NCBI GenBank assembly: GCA_021840275.1
Contig: JAKBYW010000001.1
Span: forward strand, 1-38,007
Source of the DNA: Chloroflexota bacterium
Lineage (GTDB): Bacteria; Chloroflexota; Anaerolineae; Anaerolineales; Villigracilaceae
Direction: 5' to 3'
DNA: 38,007 bases
Position numbers and translations under genes: made by a program. Below, in pieces: positions 697-26,355 of the stretch. Every line of letters starts with the position of its first letter. Position 1 is the first letter of the stretch. The notes under the pieces were generated by a model. That model was given only the letters and a program-made list of their open reading frames with translations, did no database searches and was not told the origin of the DNA.

Positions 697-745
697 GGCG
701 ATGAGGCTCGCCAAAACCGTCCTTACCGACTGATAGCCTCTACCG
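697..745 (+). promoter_or_regulatory. Fluoride riboswitch aptamer (crcB motif) #1
   Basis: The sequence is GGCGAUGAGGCUCGCCAAAACCGUCCUUACCGACUGAUAGCCUCUACCG. It has P1 GGCGA/UCGCC, pseudoknot GAGGCU/AGCCUC, a short GUC/GAC hairpin and conserved AAAC and CUGAU segments. It is nearly colinear with the crystallised Thermotoga petrophila aptamer as I recall it. crcB lies downstream in the same operon. Confidence 0.85.
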
Positions 746-779
746 ATTTTCCCCTTTTCGGTAGAGGCTATTTATTTTG
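733..779 (+). terminator. Intrinsic terminator / expression platform of riboswitch #1
   Basis: 14-bp stem ATAGCCTCTACCGA (733-746) / TCGGTAGAGGCTAT (758-771) followed by TTATTTTG. The left arm contains the 3' pseudoknot strand AGCCUCUAC, so aptamer folding and terminator formation are mutually exclusive. It ends 3 nt before the ATG at 782. Confidence 0.85.
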
Positions 780-781
780 CC

Positions 782-2206
782 ATGACGGAACATCTTCTCG
801 AAATCAAAATCACTCAACCAGGTCGTGTGACGGGGCAATACTTTTCCGTGGATGCAGACACGCTTCGTCTCGAAAAGATCGTGCGTCCGGATGAATCCAT
901 CCCCTTTGATGTAGGCATCCTGCCGACAGCGTTAACTCCCTTCAATGAACCGCTTGCCGTCCTTGTCATGGGCAGTCTCTCACATCCCAAAAATACAGAA
1001 TTGGAAGCCAAATTGCTTGGAGCTCTTCAAAGAAAAGAAGAAGCCCCTATTCTTTTGACCATCCCTGTTGTTGACGATTGTGCAATGCAGCGTCTGGATG
1101 AATATGCCGGAGAACAACGCGCTGATATTGTCAGGGTTTTGAGTCGCATCTACCCAGGCGAATGGCATTGGCTGACCGTGGAGGAGGTGGAACCCGCGCT
1201 ACATGCCGCCGCGCTGCGACATCGGCAGAAGCAGGCCGAAGGTAAACTGCCGCATCTTGACCCAGCCTGGCAGCCCATCCGTATGGGCCGCCCCACGGCA
1301 AGTTTTGCAGAGGCAGAACGTTTTACTGCCGCCGAATACACCTTCTATGAATTGCCTCATCGTTTTCAACATTATGTCAGTGAATACCTTGCGCCCGATG
1401 AACGCATCCTTTACGCGGCGCGCCGCCCAGCCATGTACAGCCATCGTAAACACTCCTGGTTTCGTCGAGCGCAATTGCAGGAAGGTGTCCTGATCCTTAC
1501 GAGTCAGCGGCTGATTCAACTAACCGAGCTTATCCCTCCTGACTCAGCGAACGTCCGATATGGGTTTCATGCGACTATCGGTGTACTCGAACGATTGGCA
1601 GAAACAACACTCACATCTCTTGGCCCCAATCTTCTTCTGCGAACCAAATGGAAAGCTGCCGGCGGGGAATCTGCCCTTGAATGGGAATCTCCAAATCATA
1701 CCCGCGCTTCGCTCGATGAATTGATTATGCTTTTGCGTGGATTTCTCACTACTGCAGATGCCTGCGCTCTGCGACGGGCGACTCCGCCCGACCCGCCAGA
1801 AAAACTGCCTTCATTGACAGATACCGCATCAGACGACCCTGAAAAGTTGCTTCTGCTTGATGAGCATTTTTCCAAAGCTGTGACAGATTTCCTCGCCCCC
1901 GATGAGCAAGTCCGCGCGTGGGCGCTTTTACCGAAATGGTCAGATCACCAAAAAACCGATAGGGCGCTTGTTGTAACAGAGAGACGCATCTTCCAGTTGC
2001 CTGACCATTCCATTGACATACCCCTCACGAATATAGCAACATTGGAATACACCAGTTCAATTCTGCAATCGTCGTTAGTAATCAATCATATTCAAGATGG
2101 CAAATCGCAACGAAAAGAGATTTATTTTCCCTATCCTGCACAGGATGCTTTTCGGGATTGTTTTGAAACCGCAAGGCGTTGCATGGCAGTCCTTCCTTTA
2201 TTATGA
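782..2206 (+). CDS. Hypothetical protein: degenerate family-I inorganic-pyrophosphatase-like N-domain plus two bacterial PH-like repeats
   Basis: 474-aa ORF. The N-terminal ~150 aa follow the PPase pattern (IPFDVGILPTALTPFNEPLAVLV vs YPxNYGxIPxTxxxDGDPxDVLV; LLGALQRKEEAPILLTIP; VLSRIYPGEWHWL), but the acidic metal ligands are replaced. There are two segments of the type PDERILYAA...GVLILTSQRLIQL and PDEQVRAWA...RALVVTERRIFQL. Confidence 0.8.
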   Translation: MTEHLLEIKITQPGRVTGQYFSVDADTLRLEKIVRPDESIPFDVGILPTALTPFNEPLAVLVMGSLSHPKNTELEAKLLGALQRKEEAPILLTIPVVDDCAMQRLDEYAGEQRADIVRVLSRIYPGEWHWLTVEEVEPALHAAALRHRQKQAEGKLPHLDPAWQPIRMGRPTASFAEAERFTAAEYTFYELPHRFQHYVSEYLAPDERILYAARRPAMYSHRKHSWFRRAQLQEGVLILTSQRLIQLTELIPPDSANVRYGFHATIGVLERLAETTLTSLGPNLLLRTKWKAAGGESALEWESPNHTRASLDELIMLLRGFLTTADACALRRATPPDPPEKLPSLTDTASDDPEKLLLLDEHFSKAVTDFLAPDEQVRAWALLPKWSDHQKTDRALVVTERRIFQLPDHSIDIPLTNIATLEYTSSILQSSLVINHIQDGKSQRKEIYFPYPAQDAFRDCFETARRCMAVLPLL

Positions 2207-2691
2207 ATTTATTCTTTTGCCCTCAATGTCGCCGACCTTTTGCATCCGTTCAGATATGTCCTGATTGCAGCGTCACTACCGACGCTGTGGCAGATACTTA
2301 CGTTGAAAGGTTATTGGAAACGGTATTATCCAACGAAACCAGTCGCGCAGGGATGGCGGTGGATGTATTAACCAAATGGCTGCATGAACCAAGAGCCATC
2401 CTTCCGTTGACTCTGTTATTGGAAAGAAAGAACGATCCTTATTCATTGGTCATCGGAGCACGAGGCTTGGGATGGCTGGGAGATGCGGCAGCTGTTCCAG
2501 TGTTGGCAAAATTCCTTTTAAACGAGAGCCAGCCCTACGTCGCGCGGGTTGCGGCGGCTGAGGCGCTGGGACGGATTGGTGGAGAAGAGTCCATCCAGGT
2601 ATTGGAGCAAGCGGCGGGAAGTCCGCGCCCCAGTGTGGCAGAGGCAGCATTAGAAAGCCTCCATAAAATAGAACAGGAAATCAAATCATGA
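2203..2691 (+). CDS. Zn-ribbon plus HEAT-repeat (PBS-lyase HEAT-like) protein
   Basis: CPQC...CPDC near the N-terminus, and HEAT-like repeats (ARGLGWLGDAAAVPVLAKFL; ARVAAAEALGRIGGEESIQVLEQA). I chose the ATG at 2203, which overlaps the upstream stop as ATGA. The ORF track starts at 2179. Confidence 0.75.
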   Translation: MNLFFCPQCRRPFASVQICPDCSVTTDAVADTYVERLLETVLSNETSRAGMAVDVLTKWLHEPRAILPLTLLLERKNDPYSLVIGARGLGWLGDAAAVPVLAKFLLNESQPYVARVAAAEALGRIGGEESIQVLEQAAGSPRPSVAEAALESLHKIEQEIKS

Positions 2692-4214
2692 CATTTTATA
2701 GTATCCTTTTCGAAAAGGAAAATATTCAGAAAGAAGCGGCAAAACAACCCGATTTTTTTAGTGACCTGAATTTGGATCAGGTGATAGATGCCATTGCAGC
2801 GCGCAAAAAAGACTATAACCTGAAACCATTCTTCTACAATCACCTGCGCGATGCCGAGACCATCTATTATCGTCATGAAGTAATGCGGGACTTGGAAGAC
2901 AAAGTGTTGATGGCCTGTATCAATGCCTTTGCCGAAAGAATGATCATTGTGCAACGTTACATGAGAATGGTTGAAAAACTGGATTCTCACCACCACAAAC
3001 AAGGCTGGATATTGGAGGCTGTGTTGCTTTATTGCGAGGCTATAACGAATTTTGCACATGAATTGGAAAAAATAAATATAACATCGCGCGGTTTGATCGC
3101 CTTTCACGAATATGTAACAACCTATGTTCATGCCCACACGTTTCAAGCTTTACAGAAGGAAGCGCAAAAGGTCAAGCACGAATTGTCGAGTGTGAAATAC
3201 TGTGTGATCATACAAGAAGGCAGGTTTAGTGTAAGAAGATACGAAGGGGAGACAGACTATAGTATTGAGGTGGAGCAGACCTTCGAGAAATTCAAACAGG
3301 GCGCTGTGAAAAATTACCTGGTTGATCTTTATAAAGGCGCGGGCATGAACCATATCGAAGCGAAAATTCTCGAATTCGTTGCCCTGCTGTATCCCAAACC
3401 TTTTGCCGCGCTCGATCAATTTTGCGCCGTTCACAGCCGATTCATGGATGAGACGATTCTTGTCTTCAATCGCGAGATTCAGTTCTACGTTGCTTATCTT
3501 GAATTCATCGCCGAGATTAAATATAAAGGATTGAATTTTTGTTATCCGCAAATCGGCGTAAATCGTGAGGTGTACGATTACGATGGCTTCGATCTGGCAT
3601 TGGCGAATGCTTTGATTTATACCGAGAAGCCAGTCATCCGCAACGACTTTTATCTCAATAACCCGGAACGTATCATCGTTGTTTCGGGACCGAATCAGGG
3701 CGGCAAGACCACTTTTGCCCGCACCTTTGGACAATTGCACTATCTTGCCAGTCTTGGTTGCCCGGTGCCAGGGCGCGAGGCGCGGCTGTTTCTATTCGAC
3801 CAGATTTTTACCCATTTCGAGAAAGAGGAGGACATTCACAACCTGCGCGGCAAATTGGAGGACGATGTGGCGCGCACTCATGACATCCTTGTCCGCGCCA
3901 CACCAGATAGTATTTTGATAATGAATGAGATTTTCGCATCCACTACCTTAAAGGACGCCGTTTTCTTGAGCAAGGAAATCATGGCGAAAATCATGGAACT
4001 GGATTTGTTGTGCGTGTGGGTGACGTTCATGGATGAGTTGGCTTCCTTGAGCGAGAAAACCATCAGCATGGTCAGCACCGTCGTTCCCGAAAATCCCGCG
4101 ATGAGGGCCTTTAGAATTATCAGAAAGCCTGCTGATGGGCTGGCCTACGCTCTCTCGCTGGCTGAAAAGCATCGATTGACCTACGAACAAATCAAGGAGC
4201 GAATTCAATCATGA
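2688..4214 (+). CDS. MutS-related ATPase (domain III/V only, no mismatch-binding domain), paralog 1
   Basis: Walker A is GPNQGGKTT. The MutS-type Walker B region ILIMNEIFASTT has N in place of the usual D. The N-terminal part is a helical core. Start and stop both overlap neighbours as ATGA. Confidence 0.85.
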   Translation: MTFYSILFEKENIQKEAAKQPDFFSDLNLDQVIDAIAARKKDYNLKPFFYNHLRDAETIYYRHEVMRDLEDKVLMACINAFAERMIIVQRYMRMVEKLDSHHHKQGWILEAVLLYCEAITNFAHELEKINITSRGLIAFHEYVTTYVHAHTFQALQKEAQKVKHELSSVKYCVIIQEGRFSVRRYEGETDYSIEVEQTFEKFKQGAVKNYLVDLYKGAGMNHIEAKILEFVALLYPKPFAALDQFCAVHSRFMDETILVFNREIQFYVAYLEFIAEIKYKGLNFCYPQIGVNREVYDYDGFDLALANALIYTEKPVIRNDFYLNNPERIIVVSGPNQGGKTTFARTFGQLHYLASLGCPVPGREARLFLFDQIFTHFEKEEDIHNLRGKLEDDVARTHDILVRATPDSILIMNEIFASTTLKDAVFLSKEIMAKIMELDLLCVWVTFMDELASLSEKTISMVSTVVPENPAMRAFRIIRKPADGLAYALSLAEKHRLTYEQIKERIQS

Positions 4215-5725
4215 AAGTTTTCCTGATGCATCCCAATCGGGATTTCGACCCAAAGCAAAAACTTCCGTTTAATGAAGACGCATTGACGCAGGACTTGGAA
4301 TTGAACACATTGTTCAACGCAATGGCGCAGGGAGATGAATTTCTGTTTGATGTGGCCAAACAATCTGTTTTGTCCAGTTTGGATTCACCCGATGCCATTC
4401 GCTATCGCCAGGAGATTCTCAGGGATTGCCTGAAAAATCCCGCCATTGTGAGGGAAATCTACAGTATCCCGATAGAGTCAATTGAAAATAAACACAGGCA
4501 TTGGATGGGAATTTTTTCAAAATACCCAAGCAGTATATTAAACGGCGCAGTCGAAATGCTGGAGATGTTCGTCGTCCTGCTCAAAAAATTAAAGCGGATT
4601 GCCGATGAACATGCACAGGAATTCGAATCGCCGGGCTTTCGAAGATTCTTTGCGATGATCCAGCAGGAGTTGGATGATGAGTATTTCGCCGTTGTCGAAA
4701 ATCATCTCAAAGTGCTGAAGTTTCGTAACGGTGTTCTCATCAGCGCTGAACTGGGAAATGGAAACGAGGGAACAAATTACATCCTTCGCAAAACCAATTA
4801 CGACAACCAGAATTGGGTCAAGCGCATCCTTGCGAGAAAATCCCAGGCCTACTCCTATTCCCTTCCTCCCCGCGATGAAGCGGGTGCGCAGGCGCTTGAG
4901 AATTTGAGGAGCAGAGGACTCAACTTGGTGGCCAATGCGGTGGCTCAATCCGCCGATCACATTGATAGTTTTCTCAATAACCTGCGGCTGGAACTGGCTT
5001 TTTACATCGGCTGTTTGAATTTATCCGAGCAGCTCGCCCAATTGGGGGGACCTATTGCATTTCCCCAACCTGCGCCTTCTGACGAGCGCCGACATTCGTT
5101 TACAAGTTTATACGATGTTGCATTGGCGTTGACCATGAAGCAAAAGGTTGTGGGCAACGATGTGAATGCTGATGGCAAAGATCTCGTCATTATCACAGGC
5201 GCCAACCAGGGCGGCAAATCCACTTTTCTGCGAAGTATTGGCCTGGCCCAGCTAATGACGCAGTGCGGGATGTTCGTGCCGGCGAAATCGTTTTCCGCCA
5301 GCTTGATTAAGGGACTTTTCACACACTACAAACGGGAAGAAGACACATCCATGCAAAGCGGTAAGTTCGATGAAGAACTTGGCAGGATGAGTGTGATTGT
5401 GGATCATATCACGCAGGATTCGATGATATTGTTCAATGAGTCGTTTGCCGCAACCAATGAAAGGGAAGGCTCGGAGATTGCGAGACAGATCGTGATGGCC
5501 TTGCTTGAAGAGCGAGCCAAAGTCTTTTATGTCACGCATTTATATGAGCTTGCATACGGTTTTCATGCGAAACAATTGGATAATGCCATTTTCCTGCGGG
5601 CGGATAGAAAATCGGATGGTCTTCGAACCTACAAATTAATCGAGGGAGAACCCCTGCAAACCAGCTATGCCGTGGATGCCTATAATAAGATATTCAGGTT
5701 GAACGAACATGAAAAAGACATTTGA
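4211..5725 (+). CDS. MutS-related ATPase (domain III/V only), paralog 2
   Basis: Walker A is GANQGGKST. The Walker B region MILFNESFAATN again reads NE instead of DE. YVTHLYELA follows. The start overlaps the upstream stop as ATGA. Confidence 0.85.
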   Translation: MKVFLMHPNRDFDPKQKLPFNEDALTQDLELNTLFNAMAQGDEFLFDVAKQSVLSSLDSPDAIRYRQEILRDCLKNPAIVREIYSIPIESIENKHRHWMGIFSKYPSSILNGAVEMLEMFVVLLKKLKRIADEHAQEFESPGFRRFFAMIQQELDDEYFAVVENHLKVLKFRNGVLISAELGNGNEGTNYILRKTNYDNQNWVKRILARKSQAYSYSLPPRDEAGAQALENLRSRGLNLVANAVAQSADHIDSFLNNLRLELAFYIGCLNLSEQLAQLGGPIAFPQPAPSDERRHSFTSLYDVALALTMKQKVVGNDVNADGKDLVIITGANQGGKSTFLRSIGLAQLMTQCGMFVPAKSFSASLIKGLFTHYKREEDTSMQSGKFDEELGRMSVIVDHITQDSMILFNESFAATNEREGSEIARQIVMALLEERAKVFYVTHLYELAYGFHAKQLDNAIFLRADRKSDGLRTYKLIEGEPLQTSYAVDAYNKIFRLNEHEKDI

Positions 5726-5780
5726 TCATTTCTGGTATTCAATTTCAAACCGCTTGAGAAAGGTTGTTTTGCCAAAAGAC

Positions 5781-6155
5781 ATGGAAACGTTTTTGTTGAT
5801 TTCAATAGGTGCGATTTTTGGGGCTAATTTAAGATATTGGGTTGGCGGCTGGGCGGCCACCCGCTTTGGGACTGCATTCCCTTACGGGACTCTGATTATT
5901 AACCTGACCGGCAGTTTTGTACTGGGTCTTTTTATAACACTGGCGACTGAGCGCTTATTGCTGGACCCGCGCTGGCGGTTAGTGGTCGCAATCGGCTTTC
6001 TCGGCGGCTATACAACATTTTCATCGTATACTTTCGAGAGTATGAGTCTGATTCTCAATAATCAATGGCTGCCTGGCTTGTTCGATCTCTTTGGGAGCGC
6101 TTTTTTGGGGGGAGTGGCGGTGTTGTTAGGTATTTTATTAGCAAGAGCCATTTAA
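5781..6155 (+). CDS. crcB: Fluoride ion channel CrcB/FluC
   Basis: FPYGTLIINLTGSFVLG and GFLGGYTTFSSY motifs with 4 predicted TM segments. The ORF track starts at 5709, but that 24-aa extension is atypical for CrcB, so I prefer METFLL at 5781. Confidence 0.85.
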   Translation: METFLLISIGAIFGANLRYWVGGWAATRFGTAFPYGTLIINLTGSFVLGLFITLATERLLLDPRWRLVVAIGFLGGYTTFSSYTFESMSLILNNQWLPGLFDLFGSAFLGGVAVLLGILLARAI

Positions 6156-6169
6156 TCTAAGGAGGCACA

Positions 6170-7432
6170 ATGTCACCGGAACAATTGATGGGAAAGAAAG
6201 TCAAACGGCTTAGCATTTATATCGGCGAAAGTGATCAGTGGCGCGGCAAGGCGCTGTACGTTGCATTAATCGAAACTCTTCGAGCACAGGGAATGGCTGG
6301 CGCAACCGTCTCACGCGGGATGGCGGGGTTTGGCGCGCATTCCGTGGTCCACACCGCCGCGATCCTGCGGCTCTCGCTCGATCTGCCGTTGATCATCAAT
6401 GTGATCGATTCTCCAGAGAAAATCAAGAATGTCCTCAAGATCATTGCCCCAATGGTGGGTGAGGGTTTGATCATTCTTGAAGATGTTGAAGTGGTCAAAT
6501 ATACACATCGTTATTTGAATCCCCTCCCAACCGATAAACCTGTTTCAGAAGTGATGACCAAAAAAATTATTACGCTGGCCGATACCATGTCCGTGGCAGA
6601 AGCATGGGAAAAGATGCTCAAGCATTTGCTCAAAGCTTTACCAGTTTTGAACAAACACGGTGATGTGGTCGGGATGTTGACCGATGAAGATTTGCTCGAA
6701 CGCGCTGGTCTGCAACAGCATTTGTCTGTGGCTGAACGAATGGATGAGCAAACGCTTCAAACAGAGATAACAGCATTGCGAAGCAGTCCGTTCAAAGTAG
6801 CGGATGTAATGACTTCCCCGGCAGTCACAATTCGAGGAGATGAGCCTTTGGGCGTTGCCACAGCACGCATGGTTGAACACGGGATCAAACGACTGCCTGT
6901 TCTCGATGGAAACGGAAAATTAATCGGCGTGCTTTCGCGTGTAGATGTGTTACGGCAGGTGGTTAGTGAGGAAGCGAAGAAACGCGCAGCGAAAGCCCCC
7001 TCCGGCGCAGCCCATACGGTGGGTGACATCATGATCTCTGAAATTCCCACTATTCATGAGGACGCACAACTGGCAGATGTGATCGCCAGCTTCCTGGAGG
7101 CCGGGACCCGCCGCCTGATCGTAACCGACGATGCTGGCCGACCCCTGGGTCTGATTAGTGATGCGGATGTAGTAACGCGGGTACAACCCAGCGCGCGACG
7201 CGGTGTTTTGCAAGCCCTACGTGGCAAACGTAAAGTTTCAGATGAAAAGACATCTGCCGCGCAATTGATGTCTCGTGAAGTGTTGAGTGCAACTCTAGAA
7301 ATATCCCTGACAGACGCCGCGCATCTTATGCTCTCACAAAAGCGCAAATGGATGGTGGTTGTGGATGCTGATGGCAAAGCTGTCGGTCTGGTGGATCGCC
7401 AAATTTTATTCAAGGCACTTTCAGGTCATTAA
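6170..7432 (+). CDS. DUF190 (PII-like, CrcB-associated) domain fused to four CBS domains
   Basis: The N-terminus LSIYIGESDQWRGKALYVALIETLRAQGMAGATVSRGMAGFG matches the DUF190 pattern, followed by four CBS-like units (e.g. VMTKKIITL, VMTSPAVTI, IMISEIPTI, LMSREVLSA). AGGAGG lies 5 nt upstream. Confidence 0.85.
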   Translation: MSPEQLMGKKVKRLSIYIGESDQWRGKALYVALIETLRAQGMAGATVSRGMAGFGAHSVVHTAAILRLSLDLPLIINVIDSPEKIKNVLKIIAPMVGEGLIILEDVEVVKYTHRYLNPLPTDKPVSEVMTKKIITLADTMSVAEAWEKMLKHLLKALPVLNKHGDVVGMLTDEDLLERAGLQQHLSVAERMDEQTLQTEITALRSSPFKVADVMTSPAVTIRGDEPLGVATARMVEHGIKRLPVLDGNGKLIGVLSRVDVLRQVVSEEAKKRAAKAPSGAAHTVGDIMISEIPTIHEDAQLADVIASFLEAGTRRLIVTDDAGRPLGLISDADVVTRVQPSARRGVLQALRGKRKVSDEKTSAAQLMSREVLSATLEISLTDAAHLMLSQKRKWMVVVDADGKAVGLVDRQILFKALSGH

Positions 7433-7746: not shown

Positions 7747-7761
7747 AATAATGCAAATTGA

Positions 7762-7930
7762 AACCTCGTTAGGCCAGGCGGCTGCAAGGTACACAGGCCA
7801 TTGCCCTGGAACGTCGAAAGACGCCAAAGGGTAGACCAGGTGAAGTCGGATTAAGGCTTCATTCAAAGTGGCTGGGATGTAATGTTACTCCCCTACGACG
7901 CGCAGTGCCAAAGCTAAACCAGGAGGTGGT
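7762..7930 (+). promoter_or_regulatory. M-box (ykoK leader) Mg2+ riboswitch
   Basis: Conserved M-box blocks are present: CGUUAGGCCAGGC, GUCGAAAGACGCCAAAGGGUAGACCAG, GGAUUAAGG, GCUGGGAUG and CAGUGCCAAAGCUAAACC, colinear with the B. subtilis mgtE leader as recalled. It lies upstream of mgtA. Confidence 0.85.
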
Positions 7931-7960
7931 TGTGGGTGTATTTTGTATACATTTAACCGG

Positions 7961-8511: not shown

Positions 8512-11145
8512 ATGGGATTCTTTACAACGATAATCACTACTCCCCAGCGCTGGGCAAATGCCACAAAGGGGAACAATATTCAAATATCAAAAGCATTAGC
8601 GGATAGCGCCCGGTTAGATGCCGCCGCTGTGCTCGAAAAACTAGGCACGTCTCAGAACGGACTCACAGTTCTTGATGTTGAAGCCCGCTTTGAACAGTAT
8701 GGGCCCAACGAGGTTGCCAAGGAGAAACACCAGACTTGGCTGATGCGCTTGATTGAAAACATCAAAAATCCGCTGGTTATTCTTCTGTCTGTACTCGGCT
8801 TGGTCTCTTATCTGACCGGTGATGTCCCCGGAACAATCGTGATCTTTATCATGGTTTTGCTGGGCATCGTGTTGCGCTACATACAGGAAAGCCGGGCTGA
8901 TTCTGCTGCAGCGAGGCTCAAGGCAATGGTAAGCACAACTGCTACGGTGGTACGCGCTGGAAAACGTATCGAAATTCCATTGAAGGAGTTGGTCCCCGGG
9001 GATATCGTTCATCTTTCAGCTGGCGATATGGTTCCCGGTGATGTACGGTTGCTCTCAGCAAAGGATCTGTTCTTGAACCAGGCCGCACTGACCGGGGAGT
9101 CCATGCCAGTGGAGAAGTTGCCTGCTGTTGTTACAGACGAGGCACTGAATCCACTCGAGATGCCAAATCTCTGCTTCCTTGGGTCAAACATTGAAAGCGG
9201 CACCGGTCTGGCAGTTGTCGTTCAAACGGGTAGCCAAACCTATTTTGGGTCCCTGGCAGGTAGCATTGTAGGTCAGCGACAATTGACCAGCTTTGACAAA
9301 GGTGTAAATGGTTTTACCTGGTTAATGATTGGTTTTATGGCCATTATGGTCCCCTTGGTGTTTCTGTTCAACGGCTTGAGCAAGCATAACTGGGTAGAAG
9401 CTTTCCTATTTGCGCTGGCAGTCGCAGTTGGACTGACGCCTGAGATGCTGCCAATGATCGTCACTGTCAATCTGTCCAAAGGCGCGCTTTCCATGTCAAA
9501 GAAAAAGGTGATCGTTAAACGATTGAACGCTATTCAGAATTTCGGTGCCATGGATGTTCTTTGCACGGACAAGACTGGCACGATCACAGAAGGCAAGATT
9601 GTACTGGAGAAGTACATGGATGTGAAAGGCAACACCAGCGAACAGGTACTTCATTACGGATATATGAACAGCTACTATCAGACAGGCTTGAAGAATCTGA
9701 TGGATGAAGCCATTCTCAATCATGTTAATCTCAACGATGATTTACAAGTGGATGAGCTTTACCGAAAGATCGACGAACTGCCCTTTGACTTCCAACGCAA
9801 ACGCATGTCTGTGATCGTAGAGAACAACCAAAACCAACACATCTTGATCTGCAAGGGCGCAGTCGAGGAAATCATGCAACTTTCCACACACGTGGAGGTT
9901 GGCGGTGAGGTTCTGGAAGTCCTGCCGGAACATGACGAACACCGCAAAGAGCGTGTGAAGCAGTTGAACTCCGAGGGCTTCCGTGTCATCGCGGTTGCTT
10001 ATCGGATCTTCTCCGGTGACAATGATGAACCGCACTACAAGGTGGCTGATGAGTCAAACCTGACCCTGCTCGGATACATGGCCTTCCTGGACCCACCGAA
10101 AGCGACCGCATCCGCCGCACTGGACAAACTCCATTTTCACAATGTGGTCGTCAAGATCCTGACCGGCGATAACGACATTGTCACAGCCAACATTTGTGAG
10201 CAGGTCGGCCTGTCCGTCGATCGGATACTACTCGGTCCGGAAATCGAACAAATGGATGATGTACAACTAGCGGAAGCTGCCGAGGCAATCACCGTTTTTG
10301 CCAAACTCTCCCCAACCCACAAAGAACGCATCATTCGCGCTTTGCAAGGGAAAGGTCACGTTGTCGGGTTCATGGGCGATGGGATTAACGATGCGCCAGC
10401 GCTCAAAACTGCCGATGTGGGCATTTCTGTGAACAGCGCAGTCGACATTGCCAAGGAGTCGTCCGACATCATCCTGCTTGAAAACAGCCTTCTGGTCCTG
10501 GAAGAAGGCGTCATCGAAGGTCGCAAGGTCTTTGGTAACATCATCAAATACATCAAGATGGCAGCCTCTTCCAACTTCGGGAACATGTTCAGCGTGCTGG
10601 GCGCCAGTCTATTCTTACCTTTTCTGCCGATGCTGCCTATTCAGGTCTTAACCAACAACCTATTGTATGACTTCTCGCAGACCGCGATCCCGACAGATGA
10701 AGTCGATCAAGAGTGGCTGACCAAACCGCGCAAATGGGAAATCAATTCGCTACGCCGCTTCATCATTTACATTGGCCCAATCAGTTCGATCTTCGATTAC
10801 ATGACGTACTTCATTATGTTGTATGTCTTCAATTGCTGGAGCAACCCTACACTGTTCCAGACGGGCTGGTTCGTAGAGTCTTTGTTCACCCAAACGTTGA
10901 TCATTCACGTTATCCGCACGAACAAGATTCCTTTCATTCAAAGCCGGGCGAGCAAATCGTTGATCTTTACTTCGCTCATTATTGTCGCAGTTGGCGCCTG
11001 GTTGACTGTTTCTCCATTGGCGTCTACATTAGGGTTTGTGACCTTGCCGCCTCTATACTGGCCCTTGCTGGCCGGCATGTTGATTGTTTATATCATCCTT
11101 ACACAGGTTGTGAAAGTCTGGTTTATTCGGCGGTTTGCTGAATAG
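8512..11145 (+). CDS. mgtA: Mg2+-importing P-type ATPase MgtA/MgtB
   Basis: 877 aa with TGES, CTDKTGTIT, TGDN and MGDGINDAPALK motifs and a P3-type 10-TM layout. GGAGG RBS. M-box leader upstream. Confidence 0.9.
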   Translation: MGFFTTIITTPQRWANATKGNNIQISKALADSARLDAAAVLEKLGTSQNGLTVLDVEARFEQYGPNEVAKEKHQTWLMRLIENIKNPLVILLSVLGLVSYLTGDVPGTIVIFIMVLLGIVLRYIQESRADSAAARLKAMVSTTATVVRAGKRIEIPLKELVPGDIVHLSAGDMVPGDVRLLSAKDLFLNQAALTGESMPVEKLPAVVTDEALNPLEMPNLCFLGSNIESGTGLAVVVQTGSQTYFGSLAGSIVGQRQLTSFDKGVNGFTWLMIGFMAIMVPLVFLFNGLSKHNWVEAFLFALAVAVGLTPEMLPMIVTVNLSKGALSMSKKKVIVKRLNAIQNFGAMDVLCTDKTGTITEGKIVLEKYMDVKGNTSEQVLHYGYMNSYYQTGLKNLMDEAILNHVNLNDDLQVDELYRKIDELPFDFQRKRMSVIVENNQNQHILICKGAVEEIMQLSTHVEVGGEVLEVLPEHDEHRKERVKQLNSEGFRVIAVAYRIFSGDNDEPHYKVADESNLTLLGYMAFLDPPKATASAALDKLHFHNVVVKILTGDNDIVTANICEQVGLSVDRILLGPEIEQMDDVQLAEAAEAITVFAKLSPTHKERIIRALQGKGHVVGFMGDGINDAPALKTADVGISVNSAVDIAKESSDIILLENSLLVLEEGVIEGRKVFGNIIKYIKMAASSNFGNMFSVLGASLFLPFLPMLPIQVLTNNLLYDFSQTAIPTDEVDQEWLTKPRKWEINSLRRFIIYIGPISSIFDYMTYFIMLYVFNCWSNPTLFQTGWFVESLFTQTLIIHVIRTNKIPFIQSRASKSLIFTSLIIVAVGAWLTVSPLASTLGFVTLPPLYWPLLAGMLIVYIILTQVVKVWFIRRFAE

Positions 11146-14484: not shown

Positions 14485-15768
<1,284 letters not shown>

Positions 15769-16092: not shown

Positions 16093-17307
16093 TCATTCAG
16101 TTTCTTTCTTTACTGGAAGTCGCCGGGTTTGCTTGGCTACGATGAAGAATAAAGGCACGGCGGCCAGTTGCGCAACGACCGAGAAGATTATCAGTGCTGG
16201 CAGCGAGATGCCGTACAGAAGCCCAATCACCGCGCTGCCCAGAAACCAGAAGATACCGTAGCCTGCTGTGAACAATCCGTATGCGGAAGCGCGGCGCTCG
16301 GGTGCAACCATCGGCGCTACTGCCGCGGGAATAATGGATTCATGCACTCCCATGCCCAAACCCCAGATCGCCATCCCAATAAGCGCGGTCCAAAAACCGC
16401 CCAGGAAAACCAACGGCGCAAAGAGTGCGGCGATGATTGTCAAAACAATCAGGATGGAAAAACCAAAACGGTCATAAAGCCGTCCGAATACCAGCGAACC
16501 AGCCCCGCTCACGCCCATCGCCACAGCATAAAATACCGGAATAACGTCCAGTGAAACAATGGAGGCTTGCGCGAAATGGTAGGCAATCAGCGGAAAATCC
16601 GCGAAGCCTGCCGCGACCAGTGCCGCGCCCACCAGATACAGCCAAAAGACGCGCGGCAGTCCACGCGGTTGAACATTCGGGACGTTTGTCTCCATTTCTT
16701 CAGGGTGCGGATAAGTTCGGTAGGCCAACAGGAGCAAGCTAAAGTTAATGACTGCGGGCACGGCCAGTGCCGCGAAGGCGAGATGATAATCGCCACGCAT
16801 CGCCAAGACCCACGCGACCACCAGGGGTCCAAACAGGGCGCCAAATTGATCCAGCGCTTCGTGCAAGCCAAATACCCATCCAATGCCGAGCTGTTTACCA
16901 GCATGTGATAGCATCACATCGCGTGGTGGATTGCGTGTGGCTTTTCCCACGCGTTCGAGAATAATCAGTACCGCCGCCATCGGCCAATTCCCCGCTAAAG
17001 CCAGCAGTGGTACAGATGCCATCTGGACGGCATAGCCAATAATCGTGATGGGCCAGAATTTCTGGGTGCGGTCAGCGAGTCGTCCCGAGACAAGCCGCAG
17101 GCCATAGCCCAGCAACTCTCCAAAGCCTGTCACAAGGCCGACAACGAAAGCACTCGCCTGCAAATGTGCGAGATAAGGACCAATAATGCTACGAGAGCCT
17201 TCGTATGTAAAATCAGCGAAGAAACTCAGGATACCAATCAAGAGTACAAACTTGAAGGCCATCTGTTGCACAGTGGTTTGTTCGGAAACCGCCGAATTAT
17301 TTTTCAT
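16093..17307 (-). CDS. MFS transporter
   Basis: 404 aa with ~12 hydrophobic segments and MFS motif A (GRLADRTQKF). AGGAG RBS. Confidence 0.85.
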   Translation of the reverse strand: MKNNSAVSEQTTVQQMAFKFVLLIGILSFFADFTYEGSRSIIGPYLAHLQASAFVVGLVTGFGELLGYGLRLVSGRLADRTQKFWPITIIGYAVQMASVPLLALAGNWPMAAVLIILERVGKATRNPPRDVMLSHAGKQLGIGWVFGLHEALDQFGALFGPLVVAWVLAMRGDYHLAFAALAVPAVINFSLLLLAYRTYPHPEEMETNVPNVQPRGLPRVFWLYLVGAALVAAGFADFPLIAYHFAQASIVSLDVIPVFYAVAMGVSGAGSLVFGRLYDRFGFSILIVLTIIAALFAPLVFLGGFWTALIGMAIWGLGMGVHESIIPAAVAPMVAPERRASAYGLFTAGYGIFWFLGSAVIGLLYGISLPALIIFSVVAQLAAVPLFFIVAKQTRRLPVKKETE

Positions 17308-18258: not shown

Positions 18259-19425
18259 TCAGGCGAACATGAACAGGGAGAGAATCGTTCCTATCAGAAC
18301 CACCCAGAGAATATCCACTTTGCGGAGCAAGGCCAGCAACGCAGCGCTGGCAAGCAAGATGTGGGACAGATCCCAATGGACGTTCAATCCAAAGCGAATG
18401 GTAACGGTCAGGAGCAAGCCTACGAAGGAGCACAGTACGCCCGCAATGATTTTATTGAAATAAGGTGAAGTCCGTAAGCGATCGAAATAGGGCGTGACGC
18501 CTACCACCATGATAAAGGATGGCAGGAAAATGCCAATGGTGGCAACAATGCTCCCAAACAAGCCGTCCAATAAATACCCGACAAAGGTGGCGGTAATGAC
18601 GATCGGCCCCGGTGTGACCTGCCCAAGCACGATCCCATTCATAAAAGTCTGACCATCCATCCAATGCCGGACCTCGACAATTTCATGCAGCATCAGGGGC
18701 ACAGATGCAAACCCGCCTCCAAAAGCGAACAGGTCTATTTTGGACATCAAGATAGCCAGATTGAATAAGTTGCGGTTGAAAATGAAAAGCAGAAGAAAAC
18801 CGACTGCAAAAACTGACAGGGTCAGCAGGAGCGGTCTTGTATAAGCCGTGCTTTGTCCGATGGAAGTGCGATGATTAACGCTGGCAGGCTTGGGCTTGAC
18901 GAGCACCAATCCTATTACAGCCGCCAGAAGAATAACAAAGATCGGATTGGCATTGAAGCCGAACAGCGCCGCCGCAGCACCTGCAATCAGGAATGCCTTC
19001 CAATCTTTTAGCGTATTTTTGCCAAAAGATAAAGCGGCATTGGCTATGACGGCGACAATGATGGCCTGTAACCCGCTAAAGGCCGAGATCACAAGGGGGA
19101 GATTGTGGTTATTCGTATACAGGGCGGCCAGGCTCAGCATCAAAACAAAGGCAGGCAGACCAAAGCCAATGAAGCTGGCGCCTGCGCCGGGCAAGCCCTG
19201 CGTTTTCAAACCCACATAGGCGGCTGTTTGCATGGCAGTTGCGCCGGGTAGCATTTGGCACAGCGCCACGCCGTCGCTAAAGGTTTCCGCCTCAAGCCAG
19301 TGCATCTTTTCCACCGTCATCTTGCGGATATAGGCGATCATGGACGGCCCGCCAAATGCAGTCAGTCCCAGGCGCAAAAAGGAAGTGAACAGTTGTGGTA
19401 TGGACGGTTTCGTATTCAGCGGCAT
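18259..19425 (-). CDS. chrA: Chromate transporter ChrA (CHR family, two-domain form)
   Basis: 388 aa with the CHR signature GLTAFGGPSMIAY and a duplicated half (FAFGGGFASVPL). Confidence 0.85.
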   Translation of the reverse strand: MPLNTKPSIPQLFTSFLRLGLTAFGGPSMIAYIRKMTVEKMHWLEAETFSDGVALCQMLPGATAMQTAAYVGLKTQGLPGAGASFIGFGLPAFVLMLSLAALYTNNHNLPLVISAFSGLQAIIVAVIANAALSFGKNTLKDWKAFLIAGAAAALFGFNANPIFVILLAAVIGLVLVKPKPASVNHRTSIGQSTAYTRPLLLTLSVFAVGFLLLFIFNRNLFNLAILMSKIDLFAFGGGFASVPLMLHEIVEVRHWMDGQTFMNGIVLGQVTPGPIVITATFVGYLLDGLFGSIVATIGIFLPSFIMVVGVTPYFDRLRTSPYFNKIIAGVLCSFVGLLLTVTIRFGLNVHWDLSHILLASAALLALLRKVDILWVVLIGTILSLFMFA

Positions 19426-19447: not shown

Positions 19448-19645
19448 TTATTTTTTATCCTGTATATCTTTTTTCTGATCCTCCTGCCCAGCCGGAGGCT
19501 GGTTGAGCAGGTTTTCTTCACGGTCCAATTCATACACCCCCAAACAACCATAACAACAGAAGTTCAGAACCTTGCCGTCGAACTCTTTTTTGATCGGGTA
19601 GTTGGTTTCCTTACCGCATAGTTCGCACGTGACTTTTTCTACCAT
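19448..19645 (-). CDS. Stand-alone FixI/CcoI N-terminal-type metal-binding domain protein (CxxC...CCxGC)
   Basis: MVEKVTCELCGKE...LNFCCYGCLGVYE. This is the 65-aa C-terminal part of the 165-aa track ORF. The ATG at 19645 overlaps the stop of the upstream gene. Confidence 0.65.
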   Translation of the reverse strand: MVEKVTCELCGKETNYPIKKEFDGKVLNFCCYGCLGVYELDREENLLNQPPAGQEDQKKDIQDKK

Positions 19646-20379
19646 AGCATCACCTGTCCAAAAGAAACTGATGGGACGAGGTTGGCGACTGCCAGCCCGC
19701 GTAAAACGGTTTGAATAGCAAAGAGCATAATCAGCGCTGCGGCGAAATATTGCAAGCGCCCGCGTAGTTTTGGACTTAGCAGGTTGGCGGCCAGACCGAA
19801 ACCAAGCAAGGTCGGGATGGTGCCGAGACCAAAGGCCAGCATGGTCAACGCGCCGCCCCACGCTGACTGTGTCCTCGCCGCGACAACCAGCATCGCAAAC
19901 ACCAGTCCGCATGGCAGGAAGCCCCAGAAGAATCCCAGCGTCCACGAAGAGAGAAAACTGCGCTTCCCGAACAGGCCGCGCATTCTCGTCATCGGCGAGA
20001 TTTTTTGGGACACCGAGGCCAGCGCCAGTTCAATCGGCGGCAGGATGCCCATCAGGCTGAGTGAGACAACGAACATGGCCAGCCCGACCAGAATGGAGAA
20101 AGCGCCCTGCCAGCCGAGCAGCCCGCCCGCCTGATTGAGCAGCGAACCAGCCAGGCCGATCACTGCTCCGAAGATGGTGTAGGTTGTGATGCGCCCAAAA
20201 TGTACAGGGGCAAGGCTGGCGATGCGCGCCAGAAGGCCCGGTTGTTTTCCATCCGCCTTGGCTTGCGCGGACTGTCGCGCAGAGTAGATGGCGACGATCC
20301 CGCCGCACATGCCGATACAATGTCCGAAGCTGCTGATAAGCCCGGTGATAAAAGCCAGCGCCAGATTACTGAGCAGCAT
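19639..20379 (-). CDS. DsbD_2-type membrane protein (often annotated sulfite exporter TauE/SafE family)
   Basis: HCIGMCGG motif in TM1, LPCG motif later, ~6 TM segments. I prefer the start MLLSNLAL at 20379, 6 nt after the upstream stop. The track ORF extends to 20538. Confidence 0.75.
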   Translation of the reverse strand: MLLSNLALAFITGLISSFGHCIGMCGGIVAIYSARQSAQAKADGKQPGLLARIASLAPVHFGRITTYTIFGAVIGLAGSLLNQAGGLLGWQGAFSILVGLAMFVVSLSLMGILPPIELALASVSQKISPMTRMRGLFGKRSFLSSWTLGFFWGFLPCGLVFAMLVVAARTQSAWGGALTMLAFGLGTIPTLLGFGLAANLLSPKLRGRLQYFAAALIMLFAIQTVLRGLAVANLVPSVSFGQVMLW

Positions 20380-20384
20380 TTTAT

Positions 20385-20891
20385 TTACAACCAGACATCG
20401 AAGTATACCGATTGGGTCTTTGCGCCGCGCGTGATGACCACTTCGATTCGCCACGGACCGCGCATGGTGAACTGGCCTGATGCGGAGTATTTCCCATTGG
20501 AGGCCGCTGTCAGCGGGAATTGGTTCGGCGGCATCCACATGGTCGGCATCGTCAGATTCACGTTGACCGTTGCATCGCTAATCGCCTGCCCATTGGCGTC
20601 GGTCAGCGTCACTTCGAAATCAGATGGATTGTATCCGGTCGGTGGATATGGATTGAGTGTGATCGAAACGGTCATGTCGCCTGCCTGTTGCACTGCCATG
20701 TTTTCAGGCAATGACGTGGCTGCGGCGTTGGCCGGGGGCGGGATCGGCCTGCCATCCGCTGAAACCGCCACCAGACCACCCGCCGCCTGCGATGTTTGCG
20801 ATAACATGTTCGAGCGCCTCATGTTCATGACCATGATGGCTACTACGATCACAAGTACGATAACGCCGACTGCTATTATTTTTTTGCCCAT
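20385..20891 (-). CDS. FixH/YtkA-like protein (signal anchor plus Ig-like domain)
   Basis: N-terminal TM segment, then MTVSITLNPYPP...LTMPTMWMPP...GKYSASGQFTMRGPWRIEVVI, typical of FixH/YtkA domains. Confidence 0.65.
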   Translation of the reverse strand: MGKKIIAVGVIVLVIVVAIMVMNMRRSNMLSQTSQAAGGLVAVSADGRPIPPPANAAATSLPENMAVQQAGDMTVSITLNPYPPTGYNPSDFEVTLTDANGQAISDATVNVNLTMPTMWMPPNQFPLTAASNGKYSASGQFTMRGPWRIEVVITRGAKTQSVYFDVWL

Positions 20892-21221: not shown

Positions 21222-22673
21222 CTAGTGAGACTGTAGCAGCTCAACCAACAAATTCCATACTCGCGTCACAGATGGAATATACAACTTCTCGTTTGGAGAG
21301 TGTGCATTCTTTATCGTTGGACCGAGCGAGATCATGTCCATCTCTCCGCATCGTTCGCCGATAATTCCGCACTCCAGACCTGCATGGATGATCTTGACTT
21401 CGGGCTTTTGACCAAAAAGTTTCTCATATGTTTCGACTGACTTCTTTAATAGGTCTGAATCCATGTTTGGTTTCCAGCCGGGATATCCGTCTATATGATT
21501 TACCTGCGCTCCTGCCAGTTTAGCGACAGCCTCTATGCGGCGGCTCAATTCATCAAGGCGCGACATCATGGAACTACGCTGGCTGGATGTAATCTGTAAC
21601 GAGTCGTCCATCATTTCAACTTTTGCCAGATTATTGGATGTTTCTACAAACCCTTCAATGCTATCCGACATGTGAGCAACGCCGTGAGGCAGTGCCATCA
21701 GCAGCCGGATAATTTTTTCTGTCTCTACAATGCTGGTCACTTCATAGTTGTTGCCATCTTTTTCCGATATGAGTCTTATTCGCAGATCAGGATCAGACCT
21801 GGAAAACTCCTCCAGCAACTCTTTTTCAAGCAAGGCGATTTGGTCTTTGCAATCACCCAGCTTTTCCTCCGGGCAGACAAAGACCGCTTCGGCTTGACGC
21901 GGGATGGCGTTATGAGCAGTGCCGCCTTGAATTAAGCTCAATTGAATTGGAACGGTTCTCTGGATGCGGTCCAAGGTCCGCGCCAGAATCTGGTTGGCAT
22001 TGCCGCGATGTTTATGGATTTCCGCGCCGGAGTGTCCACCTTGCAATCCATCGACCACGATGCGTAATCTTTTATGATTAGGAGATGGCAATTCACAAGA
22101 AAGGGGTAATTGGATTTGAGTCGTGATTCCACCCGCACACCCAACGAAAAACTCGCCTTCATCTTCCGAGTCGAGATTGATCAAGGTCTTGCCGCGAATC
22201 AAGTTTGGATCAAGATGAGACGCGCCTCCGATACCGACTTCCTCTTCGACAGTGAAAAGCAATTCAAGAGGTGGATGGAATACGTTCGTATCTTCGACCA
22301 ACGCCAGAGCGAGAGCAATTGCGATTCCATTATCCGCGCCGAGAGTCGTCTTGTCTCCCCGAAGCCAGTCACCATCTACAATGCAACGAATGGGATCGCG
22401 CAGGAAGTCATGGGGGGAATCTGATGTTTTTTCACAGACCATGTCCATGTGTCCCTGGAGCACAACCGCCGCTCTGTCTTCATATCCCGCACTGGCTGGA
22501 ACTTGTATGACCAGATTTCCAGCAGAGTCGGTTAGGGTCGAGCAGCGAAGCTCCATAGCCCATTCTTGCAGCCATGCGGAAATTTTTTGCTCGTGTTTTG
22601 TCCCGCGCGGGACGGAAGAAATTTGTTCGAAACGTTCGAGAATACGTTCAATGGGTTCCATGTGTTTATCCAT
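21222..22673 (-). CDS. pepD: Aminoacyl-histidine (Xaa-His) dipeptidase PepD, M20 family
   Basis: 483 aa with GHMDMV, GADNGIAIA and EEVG motifs and a PepD-like length. Confidence 0.9.
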   Translation of the reverse strand: MDKHMEPIERILERFEQISSVPRGTKHEQKISAWLQEWAMELRCSTLTDSAGNLVIQVPASAGYEDRAAVVLQGHMDMVCEKTSDSPHDFLRDPIRCIVDGDWLRGDKTTLGADNGIAIALALALVEDTNVFHPPLELLFTVEEEVGIGGASHLDPNLIRGKTLINLDSEDEGEFFVGCAGGITTQIQLPLSCELPSPNHKRLRIVVDGLQGGHSGAEIHKHRGNANQILARTLDRIQRTVPIQLSLIQGGTAHNAIPRQAEAVFVCPEEKLGDCKDQIALLEKELLEEFSRSDPDLRIRLISEKDGNNYEVTSIVETEKIIRLLMALPHGVAHMSDSIEGFVETSNNLAKVEMMDDSLQITSSQRSSMMSRLDELSRRIEAVAKLAGAQVNHIDGYPGWKPNMDSDLLKKSVETYEKLFGQKPEVKIIHAGLECGIIGERCGEMDMISLGPTIKNAHSPNEKLYIPSVTRVWNLLVELLQSH

Positions 22674-26192: not shown

Positions 26193-26230
26193 AATTAAAA
26201 ACCTCTACTGAAGAACATATTCAGTAGAGG
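26193..26230 (-). terminator. Intrinsic terminator after the metallophosphoesterase gene
   Basis: On the minus strand: CCTCTACTGAA/TTCAGTAGAGG 11-bp stem followed by TTTTTAATT. Confidence 0.75.
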
Positions 26231-26355
26231 CCATCAGCTATGGAGCTAGCGGTTGAATAAATTCAGAGCGAGCCTCATCGCTCAAACCTATAAAATTTTA
26301 CCACGACCCTTGCCTCAGGTGATCAAAAGCCATTCAACGGGAGTTGAGAGAACGG

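Follow-up and report, generated by a model that had tools for sequence, protein, structure and literature searches.

We analysed a window of 38,007 nt (contig JAKBYW010000001.1 of a Chloroflexota bacterium), which carries at positions 782–2206 of the plus strand an open reading frame (ORF) of 474 amino acids with an ATG start. We call its product PPL (pseudo-pyrophosphatase plus tandem PH-like protein; PH, pleckstrin homology). PPL joins a family-I inorganic pyrophosphatase (PPase) domain that has lost its catalytic residues to what structure models indicate are two related PH-like modules, and its gene starts 32 nt after a fluoride riboswitch, at the head of an operon whose neighbourhood is conserved. 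Our preferred reading, to which we give a probability of roughly 0.4, is that PPL may be a fluoride-induced, non-enzymatic adaptor or scaffold of the fluoride response in Chloroflexota.

The N-terminal domain is a homologue of family-I pyrophosphatase

Taken alone, the window protein gives weak signals: its match to Pfam PF00719 (E=6e-4, 20 bits) falls below the 23.5-bit cut-off, and its weak matches in the Protein Data Bank (PDB) are all to PPases. A search of 5.8 billion proteins returned 120 homologues with co-linear N-termini, and 88 full-length close homologues were aligned. A second alignment of 86 sequences, collected by phmmer with the C-terminal half from 1.84 billion representatives, holds 85 divergent full-length representatives at 19–43% identity to the window protein. 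The profile of the close homologues matched family-I PPases in the PDB, 37 distinct sequences in all (best E=1.5e-14), over profile positions 8–150, spanning almost the full length of a PPase. When the N-terminal sub-alignment was compared with E. coli Ppa (a reference sequence identical to PDB 1FAJ/1INO), hhalign gave a probability of 97% (E=1e-10) over 149 columns. PF00719 itself is matched by 68 of the 88 close and 66 of the 86 distant relatives, with a best E-value of 1.4e-27.

An AlphaFold2 model built from the family alignment only, with no templates and no PPase sequences, reached a mean predicted local distance difference test score (pLDDT) of 84.9 and a predicted template modelling score (pTM) of 0.79, and shows the PPase beta-barrel with its two C-terminal helices. 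Foldseek placed family-I PPases in all of the top 50 PDB positions (probability 1.0, E 2e-7 to 7e-6), with template modelling (TM) scores of 0.56–0.66 relative to the target. Residues 1–150 (782–1231, plus strand) are truly homologous to family-I inorganic pyrophosphatase. An earlier note on this DNA had proposed a PPase fold for the first ~150 amino acids, and on this point the profile search and the structure comparison both agree with it.

Loss of the catalytic site

We considered 14 active-site residues of E. coli Ppa (E20, K29, E31, R43, Y51, Y55, D65, D67, D70, D97, D102, K104, Y141 and K142), 12 of which, all but Y141 and K142, could be mapped in the hhalign register. None of the 12 is identical in the window protein: E20 is replaced by T11, K29 by Q19, E31 by F21, R43 by K32, Y51 by I40, Y55 by V44, D65 by F54, D67 by E56, D70 by A59, D97 by E86, D102 by A88 and K104 by I90. 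Three of these changes (R43 to K, D67 to E and D97 to E) are conservative. In the profile alignments F54-N55-E56-P57-L58-A59 is paired with E. coli D65-G66-D67-P68-V69-D70, and D43-V44-G45 with N54-Y55-G56, as the earlier note had quoted them (FNEPLA for DGDPVD, DVG for NYG). Its third substitution, IYP for HYK, holds in one of two registers only: hhalign deletes H140-Y141-K142, and an alternative register puts I123-Y124-P125 there. Lys is absent from the site in both registers, and Y124 is present in only 27 of the 88 close relatives.

The same loss is seen across the family. Among the close homologues, 51 keep none of the 12 residues and the maximum is 3; the MAFFT register gives the same picture as hhalign. 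The 85 distant representatives keep at most 5 of the 12, and the three-Asp cluster is never complete. A regular expression for DxDxxD, applied to residues 1–230 of 190 full-length members, found none at the expected position 50–70 and just two matches overall, both at position 132–141. We also considered, and rejected, a true PPase family with a degenerate sub-clade: an intact active site occurs in 0 of the 88 close and 85 distant sequences. In the window clade the formerly acidic pocket is now hydrophobic or aromatic (D65 to F, D70 to A, Y55 to V, K104 to I/F/Y, E31 to Y/F). Judged from the alignments, the pattern is a mosaic decay of an ancestral PPase site, and the catalytically dead domain that had been suggested for this protein is borne out by a loss that leaves no complete catalytic set. 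We infer that PPL has no PPase activity and forms no complex of magnesium, fluoride and pyrophosphate (Mg-F-PPi).

The degenerate pocket could nevertheless have been kept for a ligand. If so, it might bind pyrophosphate (PPi), Mg-F species or fluoride, and either signal through the PH modules or act as a buffer. The position of PPL at the head of a fluoride operon would suit such a sensor or decoy, and the site of D67 (E56 in the window protein) stays E or D in 75 of the 88 relatives. The aromatic replacements F54 and F/Y21 also loosely recall the aromatic coordination of fluoride in Fluc channels. However, none of the three Asp of the metal cluster remains, nor do the equivalents of E20, E31, D97 and D102 or of the PPi-binding residues K29, Y55, K104, Y141 and K142, and the replacement residues are not conserved in the wider family. 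A stoichiometric decoy would moreover be costly, and ineffective against millimolar fluoride. Because every ligand has been lost and the replacements are not conserved, we consider a sensor or decoy quite unlikely.

Two related PH-like modules in the C-terminal half

Behind the PPase-like domain, a linker of low model confidence (residues 151–182; 1232–1327, plus strand) carries an invariant DPAW(Q/K)P motif, with the codon for W163 at 1268–1270. It leads into two short helices and a first PH-like module (residues 183–320; 1328–1741, plus strand). A second linker (residues 321–352; 1742–1837, plus strand), also of lower pLDDT, has conserved R332, P339, L345 and D347 and is followed by a helix and a second PH-like module (residues 353–474; 1838–2203, plus strand). 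Secondary-structure assignment on the models by DSSP gives the first module nine strands across residues 209–304 and a closing helix at 305–319, and the second seven strands across 377–449 and a closing helix at 451–470. The hallmarks of the PH-like superfamily, a seven-stranded antiparallel beta-sandwich and a C-terminal alpha-helix, were found in two models.

A separate model of residues 181–474 reached pLDDT 89.8 and pTM 0.89, and its interpretable Foldseek matches were to PH-domain proteins only (E 4e-4 to 0.09, probability up to 1.0): FACT Spt16M/Pob3, the PH-PH pair of FARP1/2, GRK2, SIN1/Avo1, TFIIH p62, Exo84 and BRAG2. At the level of sequence, the window protein matches Pfam bPH_3 (PF14470) with E=0.0078 and 17.1 bits, below the 23-bit cut-off. 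This match recurs at E<=0.01 in 49 of the 88 close relatives (best 3.2e-6) and in just 9 of the 86 distant members. The profile of the close homologues found no sequence homologue of the PH modules in the PDB, where fold comparison alone detected the likeness. When the sub-alignments of the two modules were compared with each other, hhalign gave a probability of 77% (E=2e-5). On the models, residues 183–320 and 353–474 are two related PH-like modules. The earlier note had recognised both the PH-like character of this half and its two repeats, beginning PDERILYAA and PDEQVRAWA; the second model, the PH-only Foldseek matches and the bPH_3 signal in relatives support the former, and the hhalign comparison aligns the repeats with each other.

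The strongest conservation lies outside the pyrophosphatase-like domain

Columns conserved at 90% or more make up 39 of 138 positions in PH module 1, the most conserved segment, as against 14 of 150 in the PPase-like domain. Across the distant set, W163, E185, P192, R194, F195, L203, E207, R208, R215, T240, G261, R271 and R332 reach this level, and all positions that do so across ~170 sequences fall outside the PPase-like domain. W163 is kept in 88 of 88 close and 83 of 86 distant members, and yet the model has pLDDT below 50 at residues 161–163 and 171–180. An invariant Trp in a segment that a monomer model cannot place fits the expectation for an intermolecular contact.

Within the N-terminal domain, the residues conserved in the close clade (Y20, P41, D43, G45, R/K77, G80 and P95) map by hhalign to structural positions of ordinary PPases. 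This distinction bears on whether PPL is still an enzyme, either with a re-tooled N-terminal site that acts on some other substrate, phosphate-containing or unrelated, or with an activity elsewhere in the protein. It could be argued that the N-terminal domain of the close clade has invariant D43 and Y20 and near-invariant S67/H68, R77 and D98, and that some members are named inorganic diphosphatase or pyrophosphatase by NCBI and JGI. However, the conserved residues fall at positions that ordinary PPases also conserve or use structurally (Y30, N/D54, R88), none of them reaches 90% conservation in the distant set, and PH domains are non-catalytic. The database names probably track the domain match, as most members so named carry a PF00719 entry. 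An enzymatic role therefore seems to us rather improbable. Our preferred reading of PPL as an adaptor follows the conservation instead: the barrel would be retained as a body, and function would reside in the linker motif and PH module 1.

PPL heads an operon under a fluoride riboswitch

Upstream of PPL, a fluoride riboswitch aptamer (RF01734) spans 688–749 on the plus strand. It was detected by Rfam cmscan as a full-length model match of 41.2 bits (E=3.2e-8), above the gathering threshold (GA) of 34. An intrinsic terminator follows at 732–780 (plus strand), consisting of a 15-bp stem (732–746 paired with 758–772) and then UUUAUUUU, after which comes the ATG at 782. Its left arm, 732–746, is the 3' end of the aptamer, so that the two elements overlap. 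RNA folding gives the hairpin at 732–772 a free energy of −25.3 kcal/mol (z=−7.9), and 0 of 200 shuffled sequences were equally stable. A consensus terminator scanner missed this hairpin because its loop of 11 nt exceeds the scanner limit of 8; direct folding recovered it. The layout of aptamer and terminator suggests a transcriptional ON switch for the PPL operon.

Five genes follow PPL, with overlapping stop and start codons. The first encodes a Zn-ribbon and HEAT-repeat protein (2203–2691, plus strand; Pfam HEAT_2, 7.5e-14), and its start overlaps the PPL stop codon as ATGA, which suggests translational coupling of PPL and HEAT. Next come two MutS-domain-V ATPase paralogues, A (2688–4214, plus strand; 508 amino acids, without the mismatch-binding domain; Pfam MutS_V, 3.4e-18) and B (4211–5725, plus strand; 504 amino acids; MutS_V, 8.6e-27). 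A CrcB/Fluc fluoride channel is encoded at 5709–6155 (plus strand; Pfam CRCB, 8.2e-25; TIGR00494, 97 bits against an 80-bit cut-off), and the final gene of the operon, at 6170–7432 (plus strand), combines DUF190 (8e-36) with four CBS domains (1.9e-51 in 4 stretches). With the riboswitch, the terminator and CrcB in place, and the riboswitch recurring in at least 18 related loci, PPL can indeed be said to head a fluoride operon, as had been proposed.

In both MutS-like paralogues the Walker A motif is intact (GPNQGGKTT and GANQGGKST), but N-E (MNEIF and FNESF) stands in place of the D-E of the MutS Walker B motif. Both also show a sub-threshold match to the NCBIfam model for the lysine 5,6-aminomutase reactivase ATPase KamC, which is of similar length (~508 amino acids); for paralogue B the value is 5e-23, below the model cut-off.

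These neighbours enter into another explanation, in which PPL is a regulatory, 'prozyme'-like pseudo-subunit that uses its PPase-fold domain to assemble with the housekeeping family-I PPase, shielding that enzyme, changing its location or helping to release it from fluoride inhibition. Prokaryotic family-I PPases are obligate oligomers, and PPL keeps the full PPase fold under purifying selection despite its catalytic loss. The co-encoded ATPases, with their similarity to an enzyme reactivase, could be read in the same way, and PPase is a classic fluoride target whose genes are among the commonest partners of fluoride riboswitches (PMC11139923). Against this, neither the window nor any of 34 related loci contains a genuine PPase gene. 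The PPase-like domain is also the least conserved part of PPL, with 0 residues at or above 90% across the distant set. We regard such a pseudo-subunit as unlikely.

PPL is a conserved family of Chloroflexota with a recurrent neighbourhood

To see whether the tandem PH module also occurs behind other N-terminal domains, we searched with the C-terminal 294 amino acids by phmmer, which gave 154 hits among the 1.84 billion representatives (clusters at 50% identity). Nearly all are 470–530 amino acids long, with the match beginning near residue 180–210, and the architecture of PPL therefore appears fixed. All 30 loci drawn from GTDB species genomes belong to Chloroflexota, for the most part to Anaerolineae. 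Most come from metagenome-assembled genomes (MAGs) of Anaerolineales/Anaerolineaceae; further hosts are Leptolinea tardivitalis and Anaerolinea thermolimosa, together with one MAG of Thermoflexales and one of Limnocylindrales.

The riboswitch, which in the window scores above its gathering threshold and has an expression platform, is kept among orthologues: RF01734 lies directly upstream of the PPL homologue in at least 18 of 28 loci, 16 of them above GA and two near it (L002, 34.0 bits; L020, 32.8 bits). In L027 and L028 it lies farther upstream on the same strand. Four distant metagenomic loci (L031–L034) have no fluoride riboswitch, and there the link to fluoride rests on neighbours alone. 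In these four loci and on the JGI contig with homologue P0179 the neighbours include DUF6062, CBS, HIT, major facilitator superfamily (MFS), HEAT, Usp and Na+/H+ exchanger proteins, and on the P0179 contig also enolase. For several of these neighbour classes an association with fluoride riboswitches is known (PMC11139923; PMC2864571).

The order PPL-(HEAT)-MutS-like A-MutS-like B is found in 15 loci, often with CrcB and DUF190-CBS genes after it. A HEAT gene adjoins the PPL homologue in eight loci (L001, L002, L005, L020, L025, L027, L028 and L029) and is nearby in L033/L034, so that this adjacency recurs in very divergent lineages. The RAWQP and DDERILYA..RPP motifs are retained in two very divergent PPL proteins (L029 and L030), and the PPL gene of L029 adjoins a Zn-ribbon/HEAT ORF and enolase. 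In a deeper clade PPL is monocistronic (L013, L016, L019, L021, L023 and L024), and the next gene is convergent, encoding an MFS transporter in L013, L019, L021 and L023.

Several further features were observed in these loci. The converging MFS gene has its own weak riboswitch match (25–29 bits, below GA) at 10717–10789 (minus strand) of L013 and 10821–10884 (minus strand) of L021. A conserved Cys-rich hypothetical protein with no Pfam hit (HPLGD.EI..L.WFS..., CLLCD/CGRC) neighbours the divergent PPL in two high-GC Chloroflexota loci, at 4211–5068 (minus strand) of L029 and 5692–6735 (plus strand) of L030. In an Anaerolineales locus (L001, 9919–15979) the MutS-like A/B pair occurs twice in a row, flanked by PPL-HEAT and CrcB. 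Elsewhere a fluoride riboswitch directly precedes the MutS-like pair and not PPL (L014, 9621–9695, plus strand; L030, 5051–5110, minus strand), with an unannotated ORF of 143 amino acids between the two in L014. On this placement, the MutS-like pair is an independent riboswitch target.

The recurrence of transporter genes raises the question of whether PPL is a regulator associated with a membrane or channel, its PH-like modules docking on lipids or on CrcB or MFS transporters and so modulating export. PH and bPH domains are often membrane-associated, several Arg in PH module 1 are conserved, CrcB is encoded in the same operon, and an MFS gene recurs among the neighbours of PPL, both in the monocistronic clade and in distant loci. 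However, many loci have neither CrcB nor MFS adjacent to PPL, and we think a role of this kind distinctly unlikely.

Proposed role of PPL

In the adaptor reading that we prefer, high fluoride would cause the riboswitch to block the overlapping terminator, and the operon would be transcribed. PPL would keep the family-I PPase beta-barrel without the ligands for Mg2+ and PPi, and would thus neither hydrolyse PPi nor be caught in a Mg-F-PPi poisoning complex. The barrel would be a structural, possibly oligomerising, body. The working surfaces would be the invariant Trp motif of the first linker and PH module 1, backed by module 2, through which PPL would bind partners and not substrates. The likeliest partner may be the translationally coupled Zn-ribbon/HEAT protein, joined by the two MutS-like ATPases in loci that encode them, and PPL would act in the cytoplasm beside export by CrcB. 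We favour the scaffold because the family-wide invariant residues sit in the linker and PH module 1 and not in the PPase-like domain. The earlier note had left the choice between sensor, decoy and scaffold; the last of these fits the invariant residues, while a canonical Mg-F-PPi sensor or decoy does not agree with the loss of all Mg2+ and PPi ligands.

Four points weigh against this reading. First, the predicted inactivity rests on sequence. Second, PPL is monocistronic in the clade of Leptolinea, Anaerolinea thermolimosa and others, where neither a HEAT nor a MutS gene lies in its vicinity; a partner is therefore not always co-encoded and function may be autonomous, which limits our confidence in a scaffold. 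Third, the residues of the E. coli trimer-trimer contacts (H136, H140 and D143) are not kept, though they are variable among PPases. Fourth, the L.PDE.IL motif of PH module 1 resembles the generic beta-1 signature of bPH domains, and its conservation could be structural.

It is tempting to speculate further that PPL is the substrate-recognition subunit of an ATP-driven machine that rescues fluoride-poisoned enzymes. Here a fluoride-immune PPL body would co-assemble with, or mimic, a real PPase or another Mg-dependent phosphoryl-transfer enzyme, and the PH modules and Trp motif would recruit the HEAT protein and the MutS-like ATPases, which would pry open the Mg-F-PPi complex and reactivate the enzyme. 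We hold this elaboration to be very unlikely.

Whatever the precise role, a lineage-wide family of riboswitch-linked 'pyrophosphatase' genes probably cannot encode PPases, which would change how such genes are read in one phylum and calls for a correction where members are named inorganic diphosphatase. PPL extends the list of bacterial pseudoenzymes, and its combination of a PPase fold with tandem PH-like modules is a new domain architecture. Exporters aside, little is understood of how the bacterial cytoplasm responds to fluoride, and PPL offers an entry point to the MutS-like, HEAT, DUF190-CBS and DUF6062 proteins found alongside fluoride riboswitches. Its invariant residues (W163, R208, R215 and others) and its candidate partners supply a handle.

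Other fluoride and ion elements in the window

A second fluoride riboswitch (37.4 bits) lies at 26218–26291 on the minus strand and precedes three minus-strand genes (24442–26139, 22666–24402 and 21222–22673), which encode a P-type-ATPase-like protein, a dynamin-family GTPase and an M20 peptidase. The P-type-ATPase-like protein has just 565 amino acids and begins in the actuator domain. The C-terminus of the GTPase gives a weak match to DUF6062, a domain also encoded just behind a distant PPL homologue, that of L031. The three genes look like a further uncharacterised set linked to fluoride.

Between 14485 and 20538 on the minus strand are genes for enolase (14485–15765), an MFS transporter (16093–17307), a chromate transporter (18259–19425) and DsbD_2 (19639–20538). 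Enolase and MFS genes are classic fluoride-associated genes, and much of the window therefore looks like a fluoride or ion-stress island. Directly past the fluoride operon, an M-box (Mg2+) riboswitch (122 bits; 7758–7932, plus strand) precedes a gene for an MgtA-like P-type ATPase of 877 amino acids (8512–11145, plus strand), so that control elements for Mg2+ and fluoride are adjacent.

Comparison with known systems

In the literature that could be searched, which does not include the gene list of Baker et al. 2012 or the 2021 review in Annu Rev Biochem, we found no description of a catalytically dead PPase fused to tandem PH-like modules. A literature search for pseudo-PPases, or for bPH domains in connection with fluoride, likewise returned nothing relevant.

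With family-I PPases (PF00719; E. coli Ppa, 1FAJ/1INO; S. acidocaldarius, 1QEZ) PPL shares fold and common ancestry over ~150 residues, including the structural residues Y30/Y20, P52/P41, G56/G45, R88/(K/R)77, G91/G80 and P109/P95 (PPase/PPL). It differs from them in that DxDPxD reads F-N-E-P-L-A and in a C-terminal extension of 320 residues with the two PH-like modules. Since PPL lacks the catalytic residues that define PF00719 enzymes, the name inorganic diphosphatase is inappropriate for it. Like the riboswitch-controlled PPase genes, PPL is a PPase-family gene directly behind RF01734. The usual rationale for those genes is that they supply extra copies of a fluoride-inhibited enzyme (Baker et al. 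2012, as summarised in PMC11139923); this is inapplicable to PPL because PPL is without a catalytic site.

Compared to bPH_3 domains (PF14470, YokE-like), the PPL modules share the beta-sandwich, the C-terminal helix and the L.P.E.i motif of beta-1. Unlike them, they are in tandem and fused to a PPase-like domain, and module 1 has extra strands. The best Foldseek matches across both modules are FACT Spt16M/Pob3-SSRP1 and the PH-PH pair of FARP1/2 (241–307 columns, E ~4e-4 to 1e-2). At ~7–14% identity, a root-mean-square deviation of ~20 Å over the pair and a query-normalised TM-score of ~0.2, it is the individual PH folds that match and not the arrangement of the pair. We therefore rejected relatedness to these tandem-PH proteins and treat the likeness as a structural analogy only. 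Finally, MutS-related genes have been linked to the crcB motif since its first description (Weinberg et al. 2010, PMC2864571), and the PPL operon carries two such genes of the fluoride regulon; these are neighbours of PPL, not PPL itself.

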